In this document: positions 3,001-56,686 of the stretch, in pieces
Position numbering within the stretch: position 1 is the stretch's first letter
How the letters are laid out: every line of letters begins with the position of its first letter
Virus record (IMG/VR): IMGVR_UViG_3300044825_001572
Span: 12,730-76,729 of that record
Source: a virus
DNA: 64,000 bases
Reading direction: 5' to 3' (one strand)
Translations under genes and position numbers: made by a program
Notes under the pieces: generated by a model
What the model was told of the DNA's origin: nothing
Seen by the model: the letters and a program-made list of their open reading frames with translations, nothing else
Databases searched by the model: none

Positions 3001-6000
3001 TTTTCTTATCATCAGTTATTACATTACCAACTACTTTTAAATCTGCGTAACTAATAGTGGCATTTGGATTTGATGTAGGATTATCTCTATCAACTTGCGG
3101 ATATAAATTTCTAATATCTTGATTAAAATACTTCGATGATAATCCATATCCAACATTATTACTAATTCCTATAGAAGATGATAGTACAATAAGATGATAA
3201 ATTCCATCCTGACCTTCAGTTCCAGGAACGTGTTCTCTTATGGTGTCTACTCTATAAATGTAAAAATTATTTTTATAAGACTGTCTTGATACTAAAGGTA
3301 ACGCATTTCTTTGTTGTGTTGTTGTTCTTTGATTAATATTATTTGTAAAAGTTCCTGGATTTGTTTTAACGCCTTCAAGTTGATATGTGAATGTTCTTGA
3401 TGATGGTATTGAAAGTACCGGGTAATCTCCATTATAACTACTAACAATTCCAACCCCAGATGGATTGTTTGTACTTCTTACTGATTGAACCTTTACTACA
3501 TCTCCAACAATTAAATTATGTGGTAACTCAGTAGTAATTGTAACTGTTTGTTTATTGTTGAGAATTGAACCAGCAGAAGCATTTACAATAACTTTTTCAT
3601 TTCTCAATTCAGTTGAATTTAAAAGTTGAGTACCATCACTAATACTTATTGTACTGATAGCTACATTTTTACTTTCTTGTAAAATATATCCAGATTGTGG
3701 TGCTTTTGCATTAATATATTCTTTTGGTATAACATAACGAAGTTTATATAATCTTTCATCAATAGGTCTATTCTCTTGTATCCTTTTTATAAATGTAAAT
3801 GGAGTTGCATCTCCAAATGTAGCTATGTTGATAGTTGATACTATATCATATATTTTATTTACTGATCCAGATTGGGCAGTAAAGATATACCAAGATTTAT
3901 TTCCTTCATCCCACTGAATTGGATGGCCAAATTCTCCTGCAATTTTATCACTTACAGTACTAATTACAGAAATAGTTCCTCCATTGTTTCCTATACTTGT
4001 GATCTCTACACCTGATAATGCATCATTTAAAGTTGAAGCAAGCTTTATTTGATTAATTCCAAGAGTTATATCAACAGTATTTGTAATTGTATAATATACT
4101 TTATCAATCTCTAATCCTTCTGGAGCTTGAGCGTTATCGCTAAAAATTCTTACCTTTTCTCCGGAAAATAATTTATGATTTCCAGTAAGTGTTAATACAT
4201 TATTTGAAATATTATTAACAATTCCAGTTCTAGCAACATTATATGTTTTTTTAGATATTAACCCCTCACTTTCATCTGGAGTAGTCATATAAATTGGGGT
4301 GGAATATGAAGATTGACTTTCATTTCCAGTAATAGTTAAATATAATTTATCTCCTTCTCTTGCACCTATTCTATATCCATTAACTTGAGATATGGGTACT
4401 ACATCCTTACTATTATATCCAAAAATATAAAGTTTATTTGGGTCTGCAATAGATTGAATTTTACCAATATCTAAAGGTAGCCAAGATACCTCATCCTCTT
4501 CTTCTACCAATTCTCTTGGGGGAATTATATGAGTAATATATCCAGTATCATCTCTATCAAATGAAGTTTTCTTAAATCCTATACTATTAAGTGAGGTAGC
4601 ACCAAAGTTTGAGTTTGAGTTGGTGATACTCATATCAGCACCACTTTCAGTTAAGAAATGTTTTGCATAACCAATAGCAAAAACTGATACTGCCTGAATA
4701 AAAGCATCATTAGAACACCTAATATGATAATTCTCAAATTCGGGTTTAAATATTGCTCTTGAGTTTTGATATAATGGTCTTAGTTGACTTACTGTGGGAA
4801 GTGTAATATTATCGTAATATACTCCATTATCATAAATCAAATATGCATCATTATCTTTCTGTAGAGAAACTCCGGTAAACTGAGCCACGACCATAGATTT
4901 AAATCCATCTGCTCTCGCACCATCAGCCCACATACCACACATACCATATACTGAACGTATAGAGCAGTTGAAGATATATGGTGATGATGAACTTACAGTA
5001 TCACTTTCTACAGATACTGTAGCAACATCAAAAGTATTTGAATCTGGTAATACTTCACTTGGAATTGTAGTGGTTACAAACGTAAATGTATTGATACCAA
5101 CAACTTCTCTTACTGTAAATGATCCATTATATGCAGTTGGAGATTCGGTAATACCTCTAATTACAATAGGAGTATCTACTGCGAAATTATGAGGCTTTTC
5201 AATTTTACTTTGTAAGTCAGCAGTAGTTACAGTAATGACGCTATTATCACCAGTACCATCACCATTACCAGCGCGAATACTTGAAATTCCTAGAGGATTT
5301 TCTTGAAGTGGACCTACAATTCTAAATTCATTAACATTAGGCTCAAAATCTAGATTTGCTGGGAAATCTTCAATTCCTCTACCAGAAAGACTATCATATG
5401 CCCTAGCAATTTTATAATAATACATTTCTAGGTCGGTTAGGTCAGTTTGGTCTTGACCCAATCTAACCTTATTTACACCATCGGCATAAACAAATGATGT
5501 TAATTTGTGGTGAGAGAATTTTGGAACGTGTTTAGTATCAGTATAATTTTTATATGCAAATTTTGTTATATCTGCATCAAAGAAGGTAAATTGTGAAAAG
5601 TAGCAACTACCTGTTACATTAAAAATACTTGAAACTTCTACATCTTGACTTAATGGGTCTGGAACATATAGAGGTCTAATTTTAGTCTTTCTTAAGTCTT
5701 GACCTACTATAGAAGTACCTCTTGGTAAAATTATACCACCATTAACTGAGTTATACTTATATAAGTCATTATTTGGATCGAATATATCAAAATTAGTATT
5801 CTCCCCAAAAGGTTGTAGACTAGATGTAGTCCAAGTATCTTTTCCAGTTCTTTTCTTATATACGGCAGATCCACTAATATTTTGTATACTATATCCAGGT
5901 CTATTATCAATATAATGTGTTCCAGAAGAAACTATAATCGTAGTTCTATCATTTCTATCGTTATTTCTTCCAGGAACATATGAGTAGAGAGCAGCCTCTA

Positions 6001-10089: not shown

Positions 10090-12906
10090 TTATACAGTAA
10101 TTCCAGTTCTTACCCACTTAATCGTATTATTACGATATGTAGGTGTGATCAATAATCGAGCATTAGTACCACTAATATCAGCACCAAAAGTACCTAAAAT
10201 TTCATTATTAGCAATCGTTGCGTATTCCATATAATCACAAGCAGTGGAAGCAGAACCTACAGATTGCATAATCATTACATCAGTACTTTGGTAATTTCTT
10301 ACCACATTAATTGCAATAAAACTAAATCCAGAACCAAGAGTTCCTAATGTAGCACTTAAACTATTTCCTGAGACATATCCACTTCCTGGTGATACAATTT
10401 CAACATAAGAAACTCCTCCCGCTTTAGTCATCGTATTACCAACCCCAGCAAATGTAGTAGTTCCAATTCCAGTAACTTGTGATGTACCATTAGAGTTATT
10501 ATAAAGTTGTAAAGTAGTTGTTCCAACACCAACAGCATAGTAAATATTTCCGGCAGTAACGGCAAAACCAGTAAAACCACTATTTGGAATACTAGAAGCA
10601 AATGATACTGCAATTGTTCCTATCCCTGATGGTAGACCGTGAGCATCAGTAGTTACTAATAAATCTGTTGCACTTGTAAATCCAACTAAATTAAATGATA
10701 ATCCAATACCAATATTTGCTCGTGCATCATTTCCAGAACCACCAGTAAGTGCTACGTTTGTATAAGTTGCTTCAGTATATCCAGCACCAGCAACAATTGT
10801 TCCAACTGATGTAAATGCTGTAGTCATTCCAGCAGTTACTAATTGACCAGTACAAGCAATTGATACTTGATACCTTGCAGTTTGGAATGTTGCTGTTGCT
10901 AAATTATCTACGACCTGATTTTCAGTTGTTGCTGTAGTAGTAAGAATTCCAGAAGTTTGAGAACCAACTACTCCAGTATCATAAGTTGTAGATGTAGTAA
11001 CACCAGTATTGTTTATTGTGGTACTTCTTACATTAGTAATTGTAGAAATACCTGTATAATTTAAATTAGTTCCTGAAATATTTGTTACTGTTCCTGTAGT
11101 AGAATTTAATGTTGTTATGGTTCCAACACCAGTATTATTAAGAGTTGTACTTCTTACATTAGTAATTGTAGAAATACCTGTATAATTTAAATTAGTTCCT
11201 GAAATATTTGTTATAGTTCCAGTAGTACTATTGAGTGTTGTAATAGTTCCAACACCAGTATAGTTCAAATTTGTTCCAGATATATTAGTAACTATTCCAG
11301 TAACAATATTTCCATTTGTAAAATTTCCTGTTGTATAAGTTGCCGTAGTTCCACTTATTGTAGTTGCAGTATTAACTCCAGAAGAGTTTAAGTTTCCATT
11401 AAGATTTCCATTAAAAGTAGTTGCTGTAACTACTCCAGATATTAAAGCATTTCCAACGATTTGTAATTTTTGAGTTGGATTGGTAGTTCCAATTCCCAAA
11501 TCACCTAAAGAATCAACAACTAAAACATTAGTATTAAATGCCGAATTAATTTGTATTGGTTGAATTGGATTAGTCGTTGCAATTCCAACAAAACCAGAGG
11601 AATTTACAGTTACATCATCTTCACCTCCACCTTCTCTTCGTAATCCATTAGCACTAAAATCATCAAGGAATGCTAATTGACCTAGGAATTGATTGAGTGG
11701 AACCTGTGATGCACCATAACCAACATCCGCTTGTGTTACTACATTCCAGTAAGTTCCATTAAAGAGTTCGGTAATTGTTCCACCAACTGCTAATGTTGAA
11801 CCTGGAATAGTAGAGTTAATTCCTACAAATCCACCAGTAGTTGTAGTAATTATGGTTCCACCAGTTCCAACATTTAATCTTGTAGTTGTTGTTACTCCAG
11901 AAGTATTAATGTTGGTGTTAGAAATATTTGTTATAGTTCCAGTAGTACTATTAAGTGTTGTTATAGTTCCAACACCAGTATAAGAAACATTAGTACCTGA
12001 AAGATTTGTTATAGTTCCTGTGGTGGAATTTAGTGTAGTTATAGTACCAACACCAGTATTATTAAGAGTTGTACTTCTTACATTAGTAATTGTAGAAATA
12101 CCTGTATAATTTAAATTAGTTCCTGAAATATTAGTAACTACTCCAGTAACAATATTTCCATTTGTGAAGTTTCCTGTCGTATAAGTTGCAGTTGTACCGC
12201 TAATCGTAGTTGCAGTATTAACTCCAGAAGAGTTTAAGTTTCCAGTTATATTACCAACAAAAGTTGCAGTTATAATACCAGCACTAAAACCACCAGAAGC
12301 ATTTCTTGCAACTATTGTGGAGTTGGTATTATCACTTGTAGCATTAGAGGTTACTGTAAATGTTGAGTTTCCAGATTGGTTTGCTGTAAATGTTGCAGAG
12401 CCAGAAAGACCAGTCCCAGAAACTCCTAAAGTTAAAGTTCCATTATTTGGTGCAACTGTTGATACTCCAGTAACAAGACCTTTAGCATTTACAGTTACTA
12501 CTGGAATAGCACCAGTTCCACCATAGGTTCCTATATTACTATTGACTGTTGCAAGAGTTGTTGTTGTGTTATTTGAAGTTACATCACCAGAAAGATTTGG
12601 AATATTAGTGGTTGATGTTGCGGTTCCACTAAATGTTGTTGATGTAATAACTCCAGTTACATTAATATTAGAAAATGTTGCAATACCAGTTACATTTAAA
12701 TCATTAAATGTATTTGGAGCATTTTGAATTGCTGATTCAATCGTAGAGGTTGTGATAGCATCTAGTGAAGTAATGTTCCTAAGCTGCCTAGAAGAACTTA
12801 TAACTTCTGTATTACCAATACTTACTGATGTTACTGTTGTGATACCAGCATTTATGATATTTCTACTATCATCAATAATAGTAGAATTTTGAATTTTAAT
12901 TGCCAT
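10090..12906 (-). CDS. Tail fibre protein (938 aa, Thr/Gly/Asn-rich beta-repeat)
   Basis: GIGTTNP repeats and internal DNA repeats; N- and C-terminal modules shared with 23481..28019. Confidence 0.8.
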   Translation of the reverse strand: MAIKIQNSTIIDDSRNIINAGITTVTSVSIGNTEVISSSRQLRNITSLDAITTSTIESAIQNAPNTFNDLNVTGIATFSNINVTGVITSTTFSGTATSTTNIPNLSGDVTSNNTTTTLATVNSNIGTYGGTGAIPVVTVNAKGLVTGVSTVAPNNGTLTLGVSGTGLSGSATFTANQSGNSTFTVTSNATSDNTNSTIVARNASGGFSAGIITATFVGNITGNLNSSGVNTATTISGTTATYTTGNFTNGNIVTGVVTNISGTNLNYTGISTITNVRSTTLNNTGVGTITTLNSTTGTITNLSGTNVSYTGVGTITTLNSTTGTITNISNTNINTSGVTTTTRLNVGTGGTIITTTTGGFVGINSTIPGSTLAVGGTITELFNGTYWNVVTQADVGYGASQVPLNQFLGQLAFLDDFSANGLRREGGGEDDVTVNSSGFVGIATTNPIQPIQINSAFNTNVLVVDSLGDLGIGTTNPTQKLQIVGNALISGVVTATTFNGNLNGNLNSSGVNTATTISGTTATYTTGNFTNGNIVTGIVTNISGTNLNYTGVGTITTLNSTTGTITNISGTNLNYTGISTITNVRSTTLNNTGVGTITTLNSTTGTVTNISGTNLNYTGISTITNVRSTTINNTGVTTSTTYDTGVVGSQTSGILTTTATTENQVVDNLATATFQTARYQVSIACTGQLVTAGMTTAFTSVGTIVAGAGYTEATYTNVALTGGSGNDARANIGIGLSFNLVGFTSATDLLVTTDAHGLPSGIGTIAVSFASSIPNSGFTGFAVTAGNIYYAVGVGTTTLQLYNNSNGTSQVTGIGTTTFAGVGNTMTKAGGVSYVEIVSPGSGYVSGNSLSATLGTLGSGFSFIAINVVRNYQSTDVMIMQSVGSASTACDYMEYATIANNEILGTFGADISGTNARLLITPTYRNNTIKWVRTGITV
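11021..12132. repeat. Intragenic direct repeats (~60 bp, 3 copies)
   Basis: gtacttcttacattagtaattgtagaaatacctgtataatttaaattagttcctgaaatatt at 11021, 11147 and 12071. Confidence 0.85.
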
Positions 12907-49898: not shown

Positions 49899-50529
49899 TC
49901 ACATTTGAGATAGCTTTGCGAAATAATCTAAAGCATCATCTTCGTCCGTTGTATCGTCATCATCTTCAATAATAGAAGATTTTTTAGATGATTTTGATGA
50001 TACCATTTCTTGATAATCATCATCAATTTCTTCTTGTAGTTCTGGATCTACTTTTTTCCTTTCTGTATGAACATTACCAAGAACTTTATCTAGACGAGCT
50101 TGAAGTTCATCATAAGATTTGAACTTTTCGGGATCAACAAATTCATTTAGATTATGAAGTTTATCATAAACTTCTTTCAGGTCATCATCATCTCCACCCA
50201 ATAGAGCAGATGGATTTGCAAACTCTGAGCTATCATAGTTCCAATAACCATCTTTCTTGAGAACCTTTAGTTTGAAATCAGCACCTTCCCAAAAGTCAAA
50301 TGGATTGATAGGAGTATCATCTTGGAATTTTGGTTTTAGAGCAGCTTCAATCTTTTCAAAAATCTTCTTACCAAATTTAAAGATGCGAACAGTTCCCTCG
50401 TTTTCAGGACTATCTGGATCTTTGATTACATAGACATTAGCGTAATATGAAAGCTTACGTTTACGATCCCTTACAACATTTTGCTTTTGTTTATCTCCAG
50501 TTGCCCAATCTTTGCTATTGTTGTCGCAA
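49899..50529 (-). CDS. gp32: Single-stranded DNA-binding protein gp32, exon 2
   Basis: CDNNSKDW...KRKLSYYANVYVIKDP..PENEG..FKFGKKIF..NPFDFWEGADFKLK..YWNYDSSEF; acidic C-terminal tail. Confidence 0.92.
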
Positions 50530-50666
50530 CATTTATATTCATATAAGTTCGCTAAGCTTATATCGGGTCTTACCCTGCTTATAATTTCTTATAAGATTAG
50601 ACTATATCACACACCTAATAAATTTTAGGTGTCTCCGCATTTCGGGATGCTTATCCCTACTCCCGG

Positions 50667-51611
50667 TCAAGGGATAGTCGTTGAACCTTCCTCAAGTATA
50701 CTTGAGGCTTGGCTGCTGATTGCCTTGTGTAATATGTTTAAATACTTTTGTTTATCTTTGAGAGTTCTATCTTTATTAATATCTTTGGAATGAATAACAA
50801 GAAAAATATGATTATATCCAGAAAGTATAGTATATTTATTTTTGATAATATTTTCTTGATATCTAATGTTAAAAGTATATTCACTTTTAACCTCAATAAT
50901 CAAATTATCAATCATTATATCTGGATAATATTTTCTATTATTTGGTAAAGTTATTCTTGGAACATCTTTACCAATTTTAATTGAAGATATATCTACAATT
51001 TCAGCTAAAAGATTTAAAGCTATGTCTTCATAACCTTGAACTTTAAATTCTCTCCCAGATATAATAATGCTTTTGTTAGCATTTTTATATGGAGCATCAA
51101 TATAAGAACCATTTTTTATTCTTGTTGCAACTGATTTAGAAACTAAATCTTTTACATCTTGTTGGGTTCTACGTTCCCATTGTCTTTTAGCTTTTTGAGA
51201 AAAATAATCATCTCCATAATTTCTTTTAAGAGATGATACTCTTTTTCTAGCTATATCCAAAATTTCTTTATCACTTTTAGAAGCCATAGTAGCATTACGC
51301 TTTTCCAAAGATTTTAGTAATTTATCTCTATCATTTACAAATCGTTCTTTAACTGCTTTTTTATGATTCTCATTTTTAACAGAACAATTACTACAACAAT
51401 ATTGTTTATAGCCAAGTCTTAAACTGTTAAATCTAGTTGGAGATTTACAAGTTTTACATTTTCCTGCTTCTCCAAGATATTTCAAATAATAATCTTCGGC
51501 AGTTATTGGAACTATTCGTAGATAATTTAATAAACCTCTTAAAGTTGGATAATATGTGTTGTTTATAGCACAATAATATCCATTTTCATCTTGTAAATGT
51601 ATCTTTTCCAT
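50667..51611 (-). CDS. Intron-encoded putative homing endonuclease (Cys-rich Zn-finger + PD-(D/E)XK)
   Basis: CKTC..YCCSNC N-terminus; VQGYE...YYPDIMIDNLIIEVKS catalytic motif; 3' end reads through the intron Q and R elements. Confidence 0.8.
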   Translation of the reverse strand: MEKIHLQDENGYYCAINNTYYPTLRGLLNYLRIVPITAEDYYLKYLGEAGKCKTCKSPTRFNSLRLGYKQYCCSNCSVKNENHKKAVKERFVNDRDKLLKSLEKRNATMASKSDKEILDIARKRVSSLKRNYGDDYFSQKAKRQWERRTQQDVKDLVSKSVATRIKNGSYIDAPYKNANKSIIISGREFKVQGYEDIALNLLAEIVDISSIKIGKDVPRITLPNNRKYYPDIMIDNLIIEVKSEYTFNIRYQENIIKNKYTILSGYNHIFLVIHSKDINKDRTLKDKQKYLNILHKAISSQASSILEEGSTTIP

Positions 51612-51641
51612 ACTCGTGTATTCACTTCACAAGTATTTATA
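51610..51641 (-). promoter_or_regulatory. Late promoter TATAAATA plus RBS/AUG-sequestering hairpin of the intron ORF
   Basis: TATAAATA at 51634-41; AUACUUGUG (51628-36) pairs with CACGAGUAU (51610-18), covering GAG and the AU of AUG. Confidence 0.75.
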
Positions 51642-51727
51642 AAGTTTTAATTTATATTACCTTTAGGGTTTCCAGCAATTAACGGAGTTTTCACTATAAA
51701 TTACTTTATAGTGCCGCTTACAATCAA

Positions 51728-52017
51728 ACGGGACACTTACGTCCAACAGTAGTGGGACAATTTTCAATGAACCACTGACCTCCTGGACCTTGGAATGCGT
51801 GACTAAATGCTTGGACATATTCATCTTCCCAATCAGCACCGGCAGGTAGAAAGCGAATAACTGCATATCCAGTTTCGGTTTTCTTATTTAGTGTGGGTTT
51901 CCAGAAGCGTTCATCATCTCCTTCCCTAATCCCACCATTAAGTTTTTCAACTTGTTTAATGAGTTTTTCAGTAAGAGAACCCATTTTTGATTTCTTTTTA
52001 AGATTTTCAAAGCTCAT
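51728..52017 (-). CDS. gp32: Single-stranded DNA-binding protein gp32, exon 1
   Basis: MSFENLKKKS..DDERFWKP..GYAVIRFLPA..HAFQGPGGQWFIENCPTT.GRKCP(V). Confidence 0.92.
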
Positions 52018-56608: not shown

Positions 56609-56637
56609 TAGGTTGCTCCTTTACTATAAGTAAATTT

Positions 56638-56686
56638 GCGTTGCTTCTCCTAATGGATACTTCCGCTGGTTTTACCAGTCAACGAT
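56638..56686 (-). ncRNA. glnA-type glutamine riboswitch
   Basis: AUCGUUGA-CUGG/CCAG-CGGAAGUA-UCC/GGA-GAAGCAACGC: P1 CGUUG/CAACG, three-way junction and E-loop AGUA/GAA. Confidence 0.85.

Follow-up and report, generated by a model that had tools for sequence, protein, structure and literature searches.

In a 64,000-nucleotide (nt) stretch of viral DNA (the window; positions 12,730 to 76,729 of the 76.7-kb IMG/VR record IMGVR_UViG_3300044825_001572), the gene for gp32, the single-stranded DNA-binding protein of T4-like phages, is split by a 1198-nt insert that we read as a mobile group I intron. We put the probability at about 0.88 that this is a mobile intron of the phage IA2 type, that it sits in the C-P-V-C Val codon of gp32, and that its carrier is an uncultured T4-like myovirus from fresh water. 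Phage DNA-metabolism genes carrying group I introns and homing endonucleases form a classic system, and gp32 is a core and marker gene of T4-like phages whose product is needed early and in large amounts. Nor is the window an isolated case: gp32 introns of this kind form a family, represented on at least 15 contigs of IMG/VR.

The two halves of the gene fit together almost without loss. Exon 1 matches positions 2-56 of the Pfam gp32 profile (PF08804; E 1.3e-7) and exon 2, translated from 50528 to 49899, matches positions 60-207 of 208 (E 1.1e-32); only three profile positions, at the place of the insert, find no match. Exon 1 ends in AAG UGU CCC GU and exon 2 begins with U UGC GAC, the insert thus lying inside the Val codon, between its second and third base. 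Joining 51728 to 50529, as the original prediction had it, does restore the gene: it gives a 921-nt frame for a 306-amino-acid (aa) gp32 that reads ...ENCPTTVGRKCPVCDNNSKDW... and regains the C-P-V-C motif (...GRKCPVCDNN...). Four cut registers would yield an identical mRNA, and only 51728/50529 leaves a terminal U on exon 1 together with a terminal G on the insert; the predicted ligated junction would read ...UGUCCCGU followed by UUGCGAC. The unspliced frame continues CCC GUU UGA, with the UGA two codons past the Pro codon, and the unspliced message thus stops before the last zinc-ligand Cys, as had been claimed. The exon-2 frame, followed from the stop that precedes it, has its first ATG, GTG or TTG at 50201, 109 codons in. 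Because no start codon precedes it, the C-terminal part of gp32 cannot be made alone, and full gp32 can come only through splicing. Automatic calling of open reading frames (ORFs) at the locus returns a 97-aa N-terminal ORF, a 314-aa nuclease ORF and a C-terminal fragment, the very fragmentation that had been foreseen. The features of the locus are collected in the table.

Table. Features of the interrupted gp32 locus (window coordinates).
Feature	Position	Strand	Remarks
gp32 exon 1	51728..52017	-	codons 1-96 and first two bases of Val97
ORF holding exon 1	51724..52017	-	97 aa; UGA stop 51726..51724 directly after K-C-P-V
gp32 exon 2	49899..50529	-	third base of Val97, Cys98 to stop
Group I intron	50530..51727	-	1198 nt, phage IA2-like, ORF in P5a loop
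Intron ORF	50667..51611	-	314 aa, putative homing endonuclease, zinc ribbon and PD-ExK domain
Ribozyme 5' part	51654..51731	-	P1, P10 guide, P2, 5' strands of P3, P4, P5 and P5a
P1	51731..51728 with 51717..51714	-	CCGU (exon 1 end) with guide GCGG; U.G at cleavage site
P10 guide	51723..51718	-	UUGUAA with exon-2 UUGCGA
P2	51713..51692	-	read from sequence
P3, 5' strand	51687..51682	-	CUCCGU/GCGGAG
P4, 5' strand	51677..51672	-
P5, 5' strand	51667..51665	-
P5a, 5' strand	51660..51654	-
T4-type late-promoter box	51634..51641	-	TATAAATA, exact; 22 nt upstream of endonuclease ATG
Hairpin over endonuclease start	51610..51636	-	AUACUUGUG / CACGAGUAU; covers Shine-Dalgarno region and AU of the AUG
Ribozyme 3' part	50530..50735	-	P5a' through terminal G
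P5a' (3' strand)	50735..50729	-
P5' (3' strand)	50725..50723	-
P4' (3' strand)	50719..50714	-
P6/P6a	50713..50686	-
P7	50679..50675 (5' strand), 50604..50600 (3' strand)	-	GACUA/UAGUC
P7.1	50674..50661	-	UCCC/GGGA
P7.2	50657..50644	-	GGGAU/AUCCC
P3' (3' strand)	50638..50633	-
P8	50632..50611	-
P9	50594..50579	-	GAAA loop
P9.1	50575..50565	-
P9.2	50563..50541	-
Terminal G	50530	-

The insert belongs to the IA2 class of phage group I introns. All the helices of the original prediction, from P1 to the P9 hairpins, are present together with the terminal omega-G. P4 pairs as UGCUGG/UCAGCA, P5 and P5a enclose the intron ORF, and the P7.1 and P7.2 hairpins sit between P7 and the 3' strand of P3, which is the mark of phage-type IA2 introns; the IA2 assignment is made from these two hairpins. 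In blastn comparisons the 3' core of the intron resembles many phage introns, among them those of Staphylococcus, Bacillus, Escherichia and other phages.

This architecture recurs in other viruses. Eighty IMG/VR loci were fetched with an alignment of homologues of the intron ORF, whose product carries the Pfam domain DUF7487. In 16 of them, that is, on 15 contigs besides that of the window, gp32 exons flank the DUF7487 ORF or, on cut contigs, adjoin it. Every locus that spans the 5' junction reads CCC GU at the exon end. The 12 distinct complete introns all end in G and always lie in phase 2 of the Val codon; their joined exons give GU+N (Val) and an open gp32 frame, and an in-frame stop stands 1-7 codons past the 5' splice site in every one. 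We compared the ribozyme parts of these 12 introns over 67 pairs from P1 to P9.2, leaving out the ORF loop: 96.3% of the cells are canonical, and in 43 of the 67 pairs both partners have changed. The pairs reach a covariation score of 0.60, as against 0.185 +/- 0.015 (maximum 0.227) in 500 column shuffles and 0.06-0.12 in a slid control in which the 3' partner was moved by 1-3 columns. P3, P7, P7.2 and P9 are fully canonical in all 12 introns (100%); double changes are many in P3, P7.2 and P9 and number one in P7, with up to four pair types per position in P3, up to five in P9, and five co-varying positions in P7.2. P1 and P4 are invariant, compensatory changes are seen in P2, P3 and P5, and the U.G at the cleavage site is kept in 12/12.

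The comparison also corrects our view of what the intron recognises. Its site does lie, as first described, inside the Val codon of C-P-V-C in the window, but it is not tied to the zinc finger: in five loci (L010, L013, L014, L016 and L017) the host gp32 reads D-P-V-S at the insertion site and has no cysteines there. The intron therefore follows the CCCGU site, and we dropped the idea that it targets the zinc finger as such, D-P-V-S hosts carrying it too. On two of the contigs of this D-P-V-S type (L010:317-613 and L016:223-556), an alphaproteobacterial-type or permuted transfer-messenger RNA (RF01849, RF04321; 65-92 bits) lies about 1.5-2 kb upstream of gp32, and tRNA genes are also present on L016 and L017; judging from such sequences, the D-P-V-S-type phages may infect Alphaproteobacteria rather than cyanobacteria.

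Two further observations concern the same intron family. The gp32 gene of L006 (also that of L005) carries a second group I intron, at 3709-4870, some 47 codons farther downstream than the first. This one separates ...V-F-L from Y-K-F-G-K-K, has CCUU/GAGG as its P1, matches Rfam Intron_gpI with 43.8 bits (E 7e-8) and encodes a paralogous DUF7487 endonuclease of its own (L006:3863-4783, Pfam E 7e-17); one gp32 gene in L006 thus hosts two related intron-endonuclease pairs. Separately, short metagenome contigs of runs X2, X4 and X5 join window positions 50675-50724 to 51663-51666, the 940-nt ORF loop being replaced by 2-22 other bases. Such contigs, in which the P5'-P7 core is joined to the P3-P5 region, look like ORF-less relatives of the intron family in the same lakes.

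Alleles without the intron are found as well. A 310-nt contig from run X4, a freshwater run of a different study, lacks the intron and has six other bases at the junction: it matches 50412..50528 with 0 mismatches and 51733..51919 with 11, and on the gene strand CCCGUU is replaced by GCUUGC, turning K-C-P-V-C-D into K-C-A-C-C-D. This contig is an intron-less allele, and its gap coincides with the predicted boundaries of the intron. A survey of gp32 for both kinds of allele, as the original prediction had suggested, finds them: against the 12 complete introns at the site, gp32 is uninterrupted, closest relatives included, in 79/79 scorable loci of an exon-2 search (80 loci, one of which has no exon-1 match and could not be scored). 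Loci being sampled through exact peptide words, these counts do not yield a frequency of intron-plus alleles. The gene is likewise contiguous in all isolate records among the matches listed. The pattern is that of a patchy element present in a minority of alleles. The gp32 of L083, 90% and 86% identical in amino acids over the two exons, has C-A-C-C at the site like the X4 contig, and those of L084 and L085 have C-P-T-C. The Pro codon is CCC in every intron-plus allele and mostly CCU or CCA in the intron-less ones; intron-plus alleles would keep CCC because the P1 pairing requires it. Relative to the window, most differences in the nearest intron-less alleles fall on wobble positions, but several changes are bunched precisely at the insertion site, where CCCGUU has become GCUUGC (C-A-C-C) or CCCACU (C-P-T-C). 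Speculatively, these changes, seen in two alleles and one contig, may mark alleles that resist cleavage or do not form P1.

The ORF looped out of P5a most likely encodes the homing endonuclease of the intron, a role predicted from its domain content and fold. The sole Pfam match of its product is DUF7487 (PF24308), over residues 81-257 with 48.5 bits (cut-off 27 bits; E 1.4e-12). There are 27 close full-length homologues (48-73% identity), all metagenomic, and all 63 homologues have a precomputed DUF7487 domain. Invariant in the 28-sequence alignment are four cysteines of a zinc ribbon (C52, C55, C72 and C76) and the motifs Q-G-Y-E195, Y-Y-P-D231 and E240-V-K242. In the AlphaFold model (mean predicted local distance difference test score 86), E195 lies on helix 195-205, and D231 and E240-x-K242 lie on successive strands (232-234 and 237-243); such an E...PD...ExK set on an alpha-beta-beta-beta core is the classical PD-(D/E)xK layout. 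A structure search, all against representatives, is headed by the catalytic domain of I-Bth0305I (3r3p_B; Z 9.9, root-mean-square deviation 2.6 A, 93/98 residues), then Vsr (Z 9.5), followed by TnsA, Hjc resolvases and restriction enzymes, with I-Ssp6803I (2ost_A) at Z 5.5. Other searches return much less: a Foldseek search of the PDB gave nothing at E <= 0.001 and only weak PD-(D/E)xK matches, no meaningful match came from profile comparison with PDB sequences, PHROGs gave one weak match in the zinc-ribbon region, and tblastn against 50,697 phage records found distant relatives only (<= 38% identity). Because the sequence-level link is lacking and the ExK motif is classical, we set DUF7487 apart from the EDxHD family of I-Bth0305I and treat it as a separate, uncharacterised lineage that would work like I-Bth0305I-type enzymes. 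A literature search for DUF7487 returned no paper.

The circumstantial case for homing consists of the location of the ORF in an intron, the patchy distribution, the conserved regulation described below and the second paralogous intron-plus-ORF pair at another gp32 site. The protein is also bound to its ribozyme in a more literal way: its last ~23 codons (AISSQAS…EEGSTTIP) are encoded by P5a', P5', P4', P6, P7 and P7.1, are almost invariant in all homologues, and serve protein and ribozyme alike. ORF ends that run into intron cores are known (PMC2677866; PMC2988022). The nuclease family is also associated with introns outside gp32: at L030:1979-3173, on a viral contig of 221 kb, a less closely related DUF7487 ORF (279 aa, Pfam E 7e-35) lies directly upstream of a strong Intron_gpI match (112 bits) and just after a 601-aa Rad50/SbcC-like (AAA_23/SMC_N) ORF.

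Expression of the endonuclease appears to be governed from within the intron. Exact TATAAATA-type boxes occur in 8 of the 12 introns, at 16-31 nt upstream of the ATG; a partial box is present in another three, deviating by one base in two of these and weaker in the third. The 5' arm of the AUACUUGUG/CACGAGUAU hairpin begins inside the promoter box. In the window this hairpin has 9 bp and a minimum free energy of -9.0 kcal/mol, and the 9 pairs compare with 2.4 in shuffles. An equivalent hairpin of different sequence, its arms remaining complementary, occurs in 10 of the 11 introns with a box, with 6-10 masking pairs per intron versus 1.2-3.3 in shuffles. A device of this kind is known from T4, where long early transcripts mask the start site and late transcripts, which start inside the hairpin, can be translated; unmasking lowers splicing there, as ribosomes invade the core (PMC2988022).

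[quoted passage not shown] The pre-mRNA of gp32 would fold into the ribozyme, the guide GCGG pairing with the exon CCGU to place the U.G at the cleavage site. An external guanosine would attack after the exon-1 U; the terminal G (50530) would then enter the P7 pocket and the exons would be ligated, giving the 306-aa gp32. Ribosomes on unspliced RNA would halt at the UGA two codons after the Pro codon, and phage replication would, we infer, depend on splicing. In mixed infections the endonuclease, with a zinc-ribbon and helical DNA-binding part followed by the PD-ExK nuclease, would cut intron-less gp32 alleles, and repair of the cut allele would copy the intron in. The endonuclease would probably be expressed late only: in long early transcripts the hairpin would hide the ribosome-binding site (RBS) and the AUG, while transcripts from the intron-internal TATAAATA late promoter would lack its 5' arm. 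Such masking would keep ribosomes off the ribozyme core, which the ORF overlaps with its 3' end, while gp32 is needed.

Several points weigh against this picture. The Rfam Intron_gpI model (RF00028) does match the window copy, at 50578..50814(-) with E 2.6e-8 under permissive filters on a sub-region, and to that extent the covariance-model check that had been proposed supports the intron, but the score of 39.8 bits falls short of the gathering score of 50. The intron was missed altogether both by a gathering-threshold Rfam scan of the whole window and by an RF00028 scan of the 76.7-kb record (E <= 0.001). The misses and the low score probably arise because the 945-nt ORF breaks the model: only the 3' part of the window copy was aligned properly, P3-P5 were misplaced and the ORF was not bridged. 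The cut-off is exceeded by the introns that L010 (62.5 bits), L016 (59.4 bits) and L013 (54.8 bits) carry at this gp32 site. P5a, P9.1 and P10 are poorly supported beyond the nearer relatives of the window; P10, part of the original prediction, does pair in the window and in these relatives but is weak in more distant introns. Splicing, guanosine addition and the ligated junction are predicted from the sequence, and the activity and target of the endonuclease are predictions. Among the runs listed, no RNA run carries the stretch; metatranscriptome X21 has only two short contigs, less than 90% alike, and the one that falls on the conserved core of the intron is for that reason probably from another element. 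The late-promoter function is assigned by the T4 consensus, which may not be that of this phage. Finally, the identities of endonuclease and gp32 are roughly congruent between clades, and the association is therefore old; what suggests recent horizontal movement is solely the patchy presence among close relatives.

This last point bears on the alternative that survives best, although we consider it unlikely: the intron is real and still splices, but it is domesticated or decaying, the homing endonuclease encoded by its ORF has lost its activity, and it is inherited vertically only. The broad congruence of pairwise identities would fit such an element, as would our finding no direct sign of recent transfer. 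Yet the ORF is intact, its catalytic residues and the four zinc-ribbon cysteines are invariant across 28 homologues of 41-73% identity, and the promoter box and hairpin are conserved. Moreover, the closest relatives, with gp32 80-90% identical, are without the intron, which points to its having been gained or lost recently.

Much less probable still is that gp32 is a fractured gene, split by a free-standing endonuclease into pieces that are translated separately and assemble without splicing. Split genes of this kind are documented in phages, as in phage Aeh1, where nrdA is split by mobE (PMC2677866), and the three products of automatic ORF calling at the locus would fit one. We regard this as excluded in practice, because exon 2 lacks a start codon for its first 109 codons (to 50201) and because the complete ribozyme that flanks the ORF co-varies strongly; the split also falls inside a codon. 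An assembly chimera or other metagenomic artefact, conceivable for a metagenome-assembled contig with a completeness estimate of 36%, is excluded because the architecture recurs on 15 other contigs with divergent sequences from different samples, and the stretch itself is present in contigs of runs X1-X3 (two studies, possibly including the source sample), two of which, in X2, cover it end to end with 0 mismatches and a 6-base overlap within the ORF.

A mobile intron in gp32 would join a well-described group. The sites listed in the original prediction for T4 relatives (td, nrdB, nrdD and psbA) agree with the reviews, which bring in psbA via F-CphI and add gene 43 of phages 25 and JSE (PMC2993671; PMC2988022). 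Like the gp32 intron, the T4 introns among these combine an IA2-type core bearing P7.1 and P7.2 with a host gene of DNA metabolism, an ORF looped from a peripheral helix whose 3' end enters the core, and an in-frame stop just inside the intron; T4 I-TevI shares with the gp32-intron ORF an intron-internal late promoter and an RBS-sequestering hairpin (PMC2988022). The gp32 intron differs from them in its host gene, absent from the sites listed for T4 relatives (PMC2993671), in the placement of the ORF in P5a and in the endonuclease, PD-ExK/DUF7487 instead of GIY-YIG or HNH. In T4 reviews gene 32 figures only as neighbour or target of the free-standing SegG (PMC2988022; PMC2993671). SegG (gp32.1), encoded upstream of gene 32, is like the gp32-intron ORF a selfish endonuclease bearing on gene 32 (PMC2988022), but it is free-standing and intron-less, belongs to the GIY-YIG family and leaves the gene uninterrupted.

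The closest counterpart by fold is I-Bth0305I, from the recA group I intron of Bacillus phage 0305phi8-36 and the prototype of the EDxHD family, which was first noticed in ocean metagenomes (PMC3239194). Both proteins have an N-terminal DNA-binding part and a C-terminal nuclease (PMC3239194), and both are encoded by introns in phage recombination or replication genes. However, the gp32-intron ORF has no detectable similarity to I-Bth0305I in the profile search of PDB sequences and no Vsr Pfam match. Its motif is the classical E...PD...ExK and not the Vsr-like EDxHD set, its N-terminus consists of a zinc ribbon and long helices where I-Bth0305I has NUMOD repeats, and it sits in the P5a loop, whereas the I-Bth0305I ORF is in P1 (PMC2677866). 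I-Ssp6803I, from a cyanobacterial tRNA-fMet intron, is likewise a group I intron-encoded enzyme with a canonical PD-(D/E)xK motif, but its fold match is weak (Z 5.5), and it is a small single-domain protein (solved chain 148 residues) of a tRNA intron and has no zinc ribbon. As for cyanophages, group I introns lie in S-PM2 psbA, with the free-standing F-CphI, and in the Pf-WMP3 DNA polymerase gene, with I-PfoP3I (PMC6083498; PMC3428280); they differ from the gp32 intron in their host genes and in their Endo VII-like/HNH endonucleases, the psbA intron being without an ORF of its own.

Among the host genes of group I introns, gp32 thus appears to be new, as does the insertion site, and the endonuclease family that comes with it is uncharacterised. 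We found no published gp32 intron in a literature search that covered few subscription journals, an absence of evidence, and gp32 introns go unmentioned in a cyanomyovirus comparison and in the fractured-gene paper (PMC2677866). The novelty originally claimed for the site stands in this respect, but the intron of the window is not the single case it was taken for, at least 15 further contigs having it.

The consequences are both practical and mechanistic. Gene callers will split such a gp32 into two fragments plus a hypothetical protein, which affects core-gene counts in viromes and gp32 phylogenies. Because gp32 is needed early and abundantly, its intron is a good test case for the splicing efficiency that a phage requires and for the coupling of replication to cell state. 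Characterising a DUF7487 member would give the homing-endonuclease repertoire a further specificity scaffold. That an unrelated endonuclease family has independently come to use the T4 device of late promoter and RBS hairpin speaks for the view that ribosomes must, as a general constraint, be kept off the ribozyme core. A broader reading, which we hold to be evenly poised, is that DUF7487 constitutes an uncharacterised homing-endonuclease family with a zinc ribbon, a canonical PD-ExK motif and a fold nearest to I-Bth0305I, and that it has radiated with group I introns onto several sites in replication and recombination genes of aquatic T4-like and jumbo phages (two gp32 sites, sometimes in one gene, and a site next to a Rad50-like gene). 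Given the early need for gp32 in stoichiometric amounts, ribozyme folding and guanosine availability would then gate the supply of the protein.

The setting of the gene agrees with the phage we assign it to. The record was found in freshwater metagenomes, and its host phage is an uncultured freshwater T4-like myovirus. Upstream of gp32 lie a gene for the gp59 helicase loader and a DUF1825 gene, with the baseplate gene gp53 on the opposite strand; the synteny gp59 - DUF1825 - gp32 is consistent with a T4-like genome. No near isolate was found across a 9-kb stretch neighbouring gp32, and the nearest cultured gp32 genes are those of Synechococcus myoviruses (~70% nucleotide identity). The sole above-threshold Rfam match in the window is a glutamine riboswitch aptamer (RF01739) at 56635-56686 (-), with 50.5 bits and E 4e-8, which is consistent with a cyanophage-like genome.

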